Below, in pieces: positions 37,890 through 38,008 of a stretch of DNA of 64,000 nucleotides. The translations under genes and the position numbers were made by a program. The notes under the pieces are model-generated. The model saw nothing but the letters and a program-made list of their open reading frames with translations, did no database searches and was not told the DNA's origin. How positions within the stretch are numbered: position 1 is the stretch's first letter; each line of letters opens with the position of its first letter. Source of the DNA: Escherichia coli (GTDB lineage: Bacteria > Pseudomonadota > Gammaproteobacteria > Enterobacterales > Enterobacteriaceae); the NCBI RefSeq assembly GCF_003334405.1, contig NZ_QOWM01000007.1. One strand, given 5' to 3'.

Positions 37890-38008
37890 TTCCTGCCACG
37901 TAAGCCCCTCATCGGGCACTAAAACAGCAATACAAAAATATAACCCTCTGTAAATTACAGGGCATGGTGAGCGGCTTCGCTATGCCCAAAATCTGGAGAA
38001 AGCTCGCT

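Follow-up and report, generated by a model that had tools for sequence, protein, structure and literature searches.

The dgoD-dgoT spacer and the start of dgoT

The dgoRKADT operon, which is autorepressed by DgoR and activated by CRP (PMC6003448), was analysed in a 64,000-nucleotide stretch of E. coli DNA (the window) that is 100% identical to E. coli K-12 MG1655/BW2952. The last two genes of the operon are separated by 119 bp, from the dgoD stop codon (37887-37889) to the conserved dgoT ATG at 38009, and this spacer contains the 13-bp perfect palindrome CTGTAAATTACAG at 37948-37960 (+). The first-pass annotation had reported the palindrome and the spacer length, and both are exact. It had also called the spacer otherwise plain, which is incorrect, as a GC-rich hairpin of 27 nt adjoins the palindrome and the last ~70 nt are strongly conserved in Enterobacteriaceae. 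As a palindrome CTGTAAATTACAG is ordinary and within chance expectation: the window holds 24 perfect 6+1+6 palindromes, compared to 16.8 +/- 4.5 in dinucleotide shuffles.

The start of dgoT was assigned by comparison of genera. PGAP places it at an upstream in-frame ATG (37964-37966, +), giving an annotated product of 445 aa; this codon lies inside the GC-rich hairpin, 3 nt after the palindrome. It is mutated in loci L005 and L053 and put out of frame by indels of 1-2 nt in L035, L037, L042, L044-46, L048, L049, L055, L058 and L060-62, which represent at least ten genera. For this reason a coding extension from ATG 37964 was rejected, and the ATG at 38009-38011 (+), which begins MDIPV... and gives a 430-aa product, is taken as the conserved start.

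A conserved dgoT leader

The spacers were taken from 80 orthologous dgoT loci of species-representative genomes, and 60 non-identical leaders of the Enterobacteriaceae type (L001-L062), from about 40 genera, were aligned. Spacer length ranges from 104 to 348 bp among genera. The 5' part (37890-37942, +), with an A-rich 3' end, is hypervariable and unalignable between genera, whereas the ~70 nt adjoining dgoT are strongly conserved in the Enterobacteriaceae-type loci. They comprise an invariant ACCCUCUGUA, an AU-rich loop that varies, a GC-rich hairpin with covariation and a Shine-Dalgarno (SD) hairpin. The invariant block, ACCCTCTGTA in the DNA, occupies 10 nt at 37943-37952 (+) and takes in the left arm of the palindrome; in the 60 sequences there is no variation at alignment columns A20-G27 and A29, and T28 is conserved to at least 90%. 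The GC-rich hairpin (hairpin 2; 37961-37987, +; 27 nt, 11 pairs) directly adjoins the palindrome and is conserved, with 97.7% of alignment cells paired, two pairs changed on both sides and many switches between G.U and G-C. The SD region follows at 37990-38005 (+), with GGAG at 37995-37998, and in most genera the SD is presented in the loop of a third hairpin, AAUCUG-GAGA-CAGAUU, the helix of which is 89.9% paired with two pairs showing compensation on both sides.

Hairpin 3 is degenerate in Escherichia. Downstream of the SD (38000-38007) the genus has AAGCUCGCU where the others have CAGAUUGCG; this destroys the hairpin, and through the same change CAUGGUGAGC, in the 5' strand of hairpin 2 (37963-37972), becomes complementary to GCUCGCUAUG, which includes the start codon. 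The predicted probability that the SD is paired is 0.72-0.76 in E. coli and E. whittamii compared to 0.25 in most other genera. In one other locus (L038) hairpin 2 is lost and CCCUCUGUA is retained.

Within E. coli the 88-nt module was found in 5020 of 5426 complete genomes and was identical in 4141 of 5024 records. The median is one copy per genome, on which ground a repeat family was rejected. The four variant alleles sampled (L085-L088) all keep the palindrome, with every polymorphism of the module falling outside it; these are a U to A change at 37994 that strengthens the SD to AGGAG, a G to T change in the basal part of hairpin 2 (37961), and a 6-bp duplication of TATAAC immediately 5' of the invariant block.

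In many genera an insertion of ~125 bp is present between the dgoD stop codon and the module (L007:2775-2900, L021, L009 and others), and never within the module; these insertions resemble ERIC/IRU elements. The insertions in L004 and L011 consist of REP-like repeats, GCCGGATG...CCGGCCTAC. One record with an Enterobacteriaceae-type leader and dgoT (87% identity), L062 (CACSKA010000004.1), is titled Chryseobacterium sp. 18061, and is likely to be a contaminant contig or a mislabelled assembly.

The palindrome is not the conserved unit

The first-pass annotation had proposed that a lack of conservation in orthologous dgo operons, together with the absence of an internal promoter, would count against a function for the palindrome. 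The palindrome as such is indeed not conserved, as its perfect form occurs in some genera only; the left half, by contrast, does not vary. Orthologues differ in the inner arms and in how far apart the arms are, with a loop of 3-9 nt in the 60-sequence alignment, and the AU-rich centre, AAUU in E. coli (37953-37956, +), differs between genera in sequence and in length. The right arm carries an uncompensated A to C change in 12 of the 60 sequences. As RNA the palindrome forms a weak hairpin (37948-37960, with no strand assigned), extended in K-12 to C46-G62 with seven pairs. Explicit pair counts gave no compensatory changes in this helix and two pairs that are broken in 12-13 of the 60 sequences, and partition-function folding of the 60 leaders gave a median probability of 0.18 for pairing of the two arms, falling to ~0.02 in the variants with ACCGGG. 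As arm-arm pairing is this improbable across the leaders, the conserved unit is the left arm and not the palindrome hairpin. In the reading favoured below, a weak and poorly conserved hairpin marks the 5' edge of a conserved ~70-nt dgoT leader RNA, and the palindrome is the form that this hairpin takes in E. coli.

Could the symmetry be a by-product of chance, with no function in itself? The number of such palindromes in the window (24, with about 17 expected), the restriction of the perfect form to some genera and the weakness of an uncompensated hairpin are all consistent with this. Chance can account for the symmetry but not for a left arm that is invariant in 60 sequences beside freely varying bases, and as an explanation of the feature it is extremely unlikely. 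An invariant ACCCTCTGTA next to a varying loop and right arm, in a hairpin that is weak and does not covary, is instead a pattern that fits a site read in trans.

A reading in cis is the main rival to this, although we consider it unlikely. Here the block would act as an anti-SD, with CUCUG pairing to UGGAG in competition with the palindrome hairpin, or would, together with hairpin 2 and with no small RNA involved, determine the stability or processing of the dgoT segment of the mRNA. The RNAalifold consensus does pair CUCUG with the SD UGGAG, enclosing hairpin 2, and this pairing has a probability of 0.5-0.7 in four genera (L046, L048, L049, L053); hairpins 2 and 3 are conserved and covarying, and the module stays attached to dgoT despite the repeat insertions. 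Across the 60 leaders, however, anti-SD:SD pairing loses out to hairpin 3 and has a median probability of 0.00, and the five proposed pairs are all near-invariant, so covariation speaks neither for nor against them. A purely cis-acting structure would also leave unexplained why the unrelated leaders of other families, described below, keep complementarity to the same bases of Spot 42.

Operator, promoter and terminator signals

The palindrome was compared with the operators of DgoR (GntR/FadR family) at the dgo promoter, TTGTAGTACAA (34439-34449) and TTGTACTACAT (34460-34470), which lie in the same operon and likewise consist of inverted TGTA/TACA half-sites. In both of these the half-sites are separated by a 1-nt centre, the spacing is fixed and conserved and the sites overlap the promoter; in the palindrome the separation is 3 nt, is variable among orthologues, and no promoter is present. 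The earlier view that the feature belongs to dgoT and is distinct from the DgoR operators is thus borne out. Its suggestion of an internal operator is not, given the 3-nt centre, the varying spacing and inner arms of the orthologues, the unconserved right arm and the lack of a sense-strand promoter. Variable spacing together with an uncompensated A to C change in the right arm is a misfit with a dimeric operator of fixed spacing. A DgoR-type operator of the form TTGTA-(G/C)-TACAA was rejected, as the spacing differs from this form, ranging from 3 to 9 nt among orthologues, and conservation is poor.

Sigma-70-like promoters on the sense strand upstream of dgoT were absent from E. coli, Salmonella, Enterobacter and Klebsiella (K. 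oxytoca). The candidate -10 element TAAATT lacks its final T in many genera, and the corresponding -35 position falls within unalignable sequence. In Salmonella, a dgoT::lacZ fusion is silent until repression by DgoR is lifted (PMC3573128). An internal promoter was rejected on the lack of a consensus in the four genera and on these contrary genetics.

An element acting at the DNA level, whether as part of an internal dgoT promoter or as an internal operator bound by DgoR or some other repressor, is therefore very unlikely. What speaks for it is that the half-sites are common to the palindrome and the DgoR operators and that TGTA-N3-TACA occurs only twice in the window, where 0.33 would be expected. 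Against this stand the differences in centre and conservation given above, the absence of promoter-like sites from all four genera, and the Salmonella fusion, which is expressed only once DgoR no longer represses the operon promoter.

The window contains three matches to TGTASTACA compared to 0.13 expected. Two are the real DgoR operators; the third, TGTAGTACA at 23349-23357, is the same as the core of DgoR operator IR1, lies inside the yidC coding region, and is probably due to chance. A scan of the spacer for intrinsic terminators found none; hairpin 2 is followed by AAAAUCUGG and not by a U tract. The Rfam covariance models gave no match up to E=1 in 34000-40000.

Complementarity to Spot 42 in E. 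coli

Spot 42 is a CRP-repressed small RNA (sRNA) that represses genes for the uptake and metabolism of secondary carbon sources (PMC8916003). The core of the invariant block, CCUCUGUA (37945-37952), is the exact complement of nt 7-14 of the real spf sequence, UACAGAGG. The predicted pairing site extends over 37945-37958 (+), as UUAC (37955-37958) can pair with Spot 42 nt 1-4 across a 2x2 internal loop, giving 12 pairs in total compared to eight for the core alone. Since unrestricted RNAduplex yielded unrealistic long-range loops, duplexes were predicted with windowed scans. The predicted hybridisation energy is -16.5 kcal/mol, and the accessibility-corrected energy is -8.96, compared to -9.56 for the validated site in galK.

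The perfect match of 8 nt to Spot 42 is the longest found among 11 real sRNAs. The hybridisation energy was equalled by 7 of 300 shuffled leaders and by 10 of 300 shuffled seeds, and a site of this energy is met with about every 2.8 kb. By accessibility-corrected score dgoT is 6th among 44 ORF starts, and 7 of 150 shuffles equalled this score. Taken alone, the E. coli duplex prediction is ordinary and constitutes weak evidence.

On the mRNA the site is largely accessible. Opening it costs about 2 kcal/mol (in E. coli and L007), and across the leaders the 5' arm is paired with a median probability of 0.5, and with its palindrome partner with a median of only 0.18. On the sRNA, opening nt 7-14 costs 5.3 kcal/mol, with nt 10-14 predicted to be paired, compared to 2.1 for nt 1-8. 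Spot 42 also carries the ribosome-binding site of SpfP (PMC8916003), which we assign to nt 10-14 from our own reading of the sequence. At -64 to -51 from the AUG, the E. coli site does not fall within the region where ribosomes are usually blocked. Pairing in the register with Spot 42 nt 7-14 does not account for the invariance of A43 and C44. Of 79 leaders, only 4 have an Hfq-binding (ARN)n motif of at least four repeats within the 40 nt upstream; those of the Enterobacteriaceae show no more than a general richness in A (about 45%). In the searchable literature dgoT is not mentioned together with Spot 42, Hfq, a TSS or RNase E, nor is it among the Spot 42 targets named there. It is absent from the supplements of Hfq-CLASH and network-inference studies, and dgo is barely expressed without galactonate.

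Recurrence of the complementarity in unrelated leaders

Seven other types of dgoT leader were present among the orthologues, from Pantoea, a Pantoea MAG, Erwinia, Acerihabitans, Rahnella and two Sodalis (L063-L080), and these have no leader sequence in common with the Enterobacteriaceae type. The spf gene is reported from Pantoea, Rahnella and most enterobacterial genera, and 91 of its 109 nt are invariant even when compared with Vibrionaceae, with the same 5' end (PMC3295665; the sequence in distant taxa is as given in the literature). The seven types bear motifs resembling ACCCU(A/G)C, complementary to Spot 42 nt 1-8 and located between -66 and +15; those in L067, Erwinia and Rahnella, at -28 to +15, are within the ribosome-binding window. 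The 7-mer is present in four of the seven lineages where 0.011 would be expected per leader empirically (P about 6e-7, or 3e-5 with the two Pantoea types merged). The Pantoea leaders contain the identical 8-mer to the validated region-I site of galK, UACCCUGC.

The specificity of this signal was assessed with a panel of 11 real sRNAs (from the roughly 100 of E. coli): Spot 42, OmrA/B, RyhB, SgrS, CyaR, GcvB, ChiX, MicA, RybB and CsrC. Scored by contiguous 7-nt seed matches over the eight leader types, Spot 42 nt 1-14 ranks first of 1233 windows from these sRNAs. With Watson-Crick pairs only, nt 1-14 match in four of the eight lineages, which was equalled by 6 of 3000 natural 14-mers; allowing at most one G.U the match is found in seven of eight, equalled by 4 of 3000. 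When mean energy was used instead, the observed value was equalled by 1 of 400 composition-matched shuffled seeds, a result unchanged without the discovery lineage, and was reached at none of 103 other positions of the same loci. The mean-energy signal peaks at the 5' end of Spot 42 only. Natural 18-mers equalled it in 9 of 500 cases, and among the real sRNAs GC-rich hairpin segments of CsrC and RyhB surpassed Spot 42, which came 5th of 400 windows. As such segments score better, mean energy was judged too blunt, and the contiguous seed-match statistic was adopted.

Could the block be read by another trans-acting factor, a different sRNA or an RNA-binding protein, with the match to Spot 42 being coincidental? 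This we regard as rather improbable. The panel comprised only 11 sRNAs, the discovery step that pointed to Spot 42 bears a multiple-testing burden, and the E. coli pairing energy is unremarkable. CCUCU also resembles an anti-SD and pairs with any SD-like purine tract, of which Spot 42 nt 10-14 is an example. A coincidence is nevertheless hard to reconcile with the first rank of Spot 42 nt 1-14 among the 1233 windows in cross-lineage seed matches, with the replication of the signal when the discovery lineage is left out, or with the motif that the divergent leaders share with the validated galK region-I site.

Several further matches were observed. Erwinia aphidicola has two dgoT copies in one genome, on two scaffolds (L074, L075), with identical 269-bp spacers, and in both leaders ACCCUAC directly adjoins the SD (ACCCUACGGAG). 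A second stretch complementary to Spot 42, AUAUUUCUGUAACCGCUACA, covers dgoT codons 2-8 (+4 to +24) in L033, L038, L041, L050, L051, L054 and L059, which belong to Buttiauxella, one Citrobacter amalonaticus genome (L033) and a few related genera; its predicted energy with Spot 42 nt 1-17 is -15.6 to -18.6 kcal/mol.

Elsewhere in the window, the best accessibility-corrected score with Spot 42 (-11.18, region I) belongs to CGCAUUUUACCUCUCCCUAUAU at 49562-49583 (+), about 40-60 nt 5' of another transporter gene, yidK (start 49623), which encodes a solute:sodium symporter. In the tnaA-tnaB spacer, a stretch of 9 nt perfectly complementary to Spot 42 nt 1-9, UUACCCUAC, lies within CCACUCUCUUACCCUACAUCCU at 19540-19561 (-), about 40-58 nt 5' of the tryptophan permease gene tnaB (start 19503), and the corrected score of this site, -11.06, is better than that of dgoT. 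The known repression of tnaCAB by Spot 42 acts through the tnaC-tnaA spacer (PMC5748587). The site found here, before the transporter cistron, is not the one described in that study, but it does mean that one of the two best blind matches to Spot 42 in the window falls in tnaCAB.

A predicted Spot 42 target inside the dgo operon

From the sequence comparisons, we consider it about evenly balanced whether the dgoD-dgoT spacer provides Spot 42 with a new intra-operon target of the kind found at galK, and this is the reading that we favour. The functional unit would be the invariant left arm, ACCCUCUGUA, which is predicted to be largely single-stranded and to pair with region I of Spot 42. This region, at the extreme 5' end of the sRNA, pairs with 8 nt of galK; RNase E cuts a few nt downstream of that duplex, and GGG or CCC mutations of region I abolish the RNase E-dependent galET-long transcript (PMC8577784).

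We infer that pairing takes place in vivo, and the direction of regulation and a mechanism involving RNase E or Rho are proposed as follows. In the presence of glucose, Spot 42, which is Hfq-dependent and repressed by cAMP-CRP, would be abundant, and Spot 42-Hfq would pair with ACCCUCUGUA just 5' of hairpin 2 in the dgoRKADT transcript, lowering the synthesis of DgoT separately from that of the upstream enzymes. By analogy with galK (PMC8577784), RNase E might cut in the adjacent AU-rich loop, for which 37953-37956 is a candidate point; alternatively, or in addition, translation of dgoT might be blocked and Rho-dependent termination follow. In either case a dgoRKAD transcript without dgoT would result. 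Less DgoT would mean less uptake of D-galactonate, the inducer, and catabolite repression would be reinforced. The first-pass annotation had also raised the possibility of a processing site for dgoT, and by likeness to galK this is plausible. The regulatory logic fits, with a CRP-activated operon, a CRP-repressed sRNA and an intra-operon precedent at galT-galK.

There is a small chance that the spacer acts as a trap for Spot 42, instead of or besides being a site of repression, or that the invariant 10-mer is part of a related three-way switch. As a trap, the spacer, made abundant by galactonate induction, would titrate or destabilise Spot 42 and so relieve its other targets, in analogy to chbBC and ChiX. 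In the switch, the 10-mer would pair with its own right arm, its own SD or Spot 42, and in some genera Spot 42 could possibly free the SD and activate dgoT. The distance of the site from the ribosome-binding site, the stable hairpin 3' of it and the anti-SD pairing predicted in four genera fit such a non-canonical mode.

If repression by Spot 42 is correct, dgoT would be a new target of this sRNA and, after galK, another case of a catabolic operon with an intercistronic sRNA site. A system that has so far been described through DgoR and CRP only would gain post-transcriptional control, and as less transporter means less entry of inducer, glucose would override galactonate at a second level. 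The system is of wider relevance, as dgoR mutations are repeatedly selected during colonisation of the mouse gut by E. coli, and DgoT is reported to be a virulence determinant in Salmonella Choleraesuis (PMC12288454). It also provides a case in which the leaders of different families, with no sequence similarity, keep a match to the same few bases of Spot 42.

Comparison with known systems

The closest parallel is the galT-galK junction of galETKM (Moller et al. 2002; PMC8577784), within which Spot 42 acts at galK (PMC8916003, PMC8577784). Both are CRP-activated catabolic operons with a site before a downstream cistron, and both the galK site and the predicted dgoT site use the 5' end of Spot 42 (region I). 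Discoordinate expression of the operon, by way of RNase E and Rho, would be the outcome expected at dgoT as at galK. They differ in that galK has three Spot 42 regions spanning the SD and early codons, whereas dgoT has a single predicted site, 51-64 nt before the AUG, with a stable hairpin between it and the SD. The nucleotides of Spot 42 differ as well, being nt 7-14 (plus 1-4) for dgoT and nt 1-8 for galK.

More broadly, dgoT would be the same class of target as those of the multi-output feed-forward loop of Spot 42 and CRP (Beisel and Storz 2011, as relayed in PMC8916003 and PMC5748587). This class consists of CRP-activated genes for taking up non-preferred carbon sources, among them srlA, nanC, fucI, glpF and tnaCAB.

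A third comparison is offered by the chbB-chbC spacer, which is a trap for the sRNA ChiX. It titrates and destabilises the sRNA, such that the mRNA regulates the sRNA. Like dgoD-dgoT, it is the spacer of an inducible sugar operon, and its complementarity to the seed of an sRNA is found at a distance from the ribosome-binding site. Regulation at chb runs from mRNA to sRNA, whereas at dgoD-dgoT either direction is possible.
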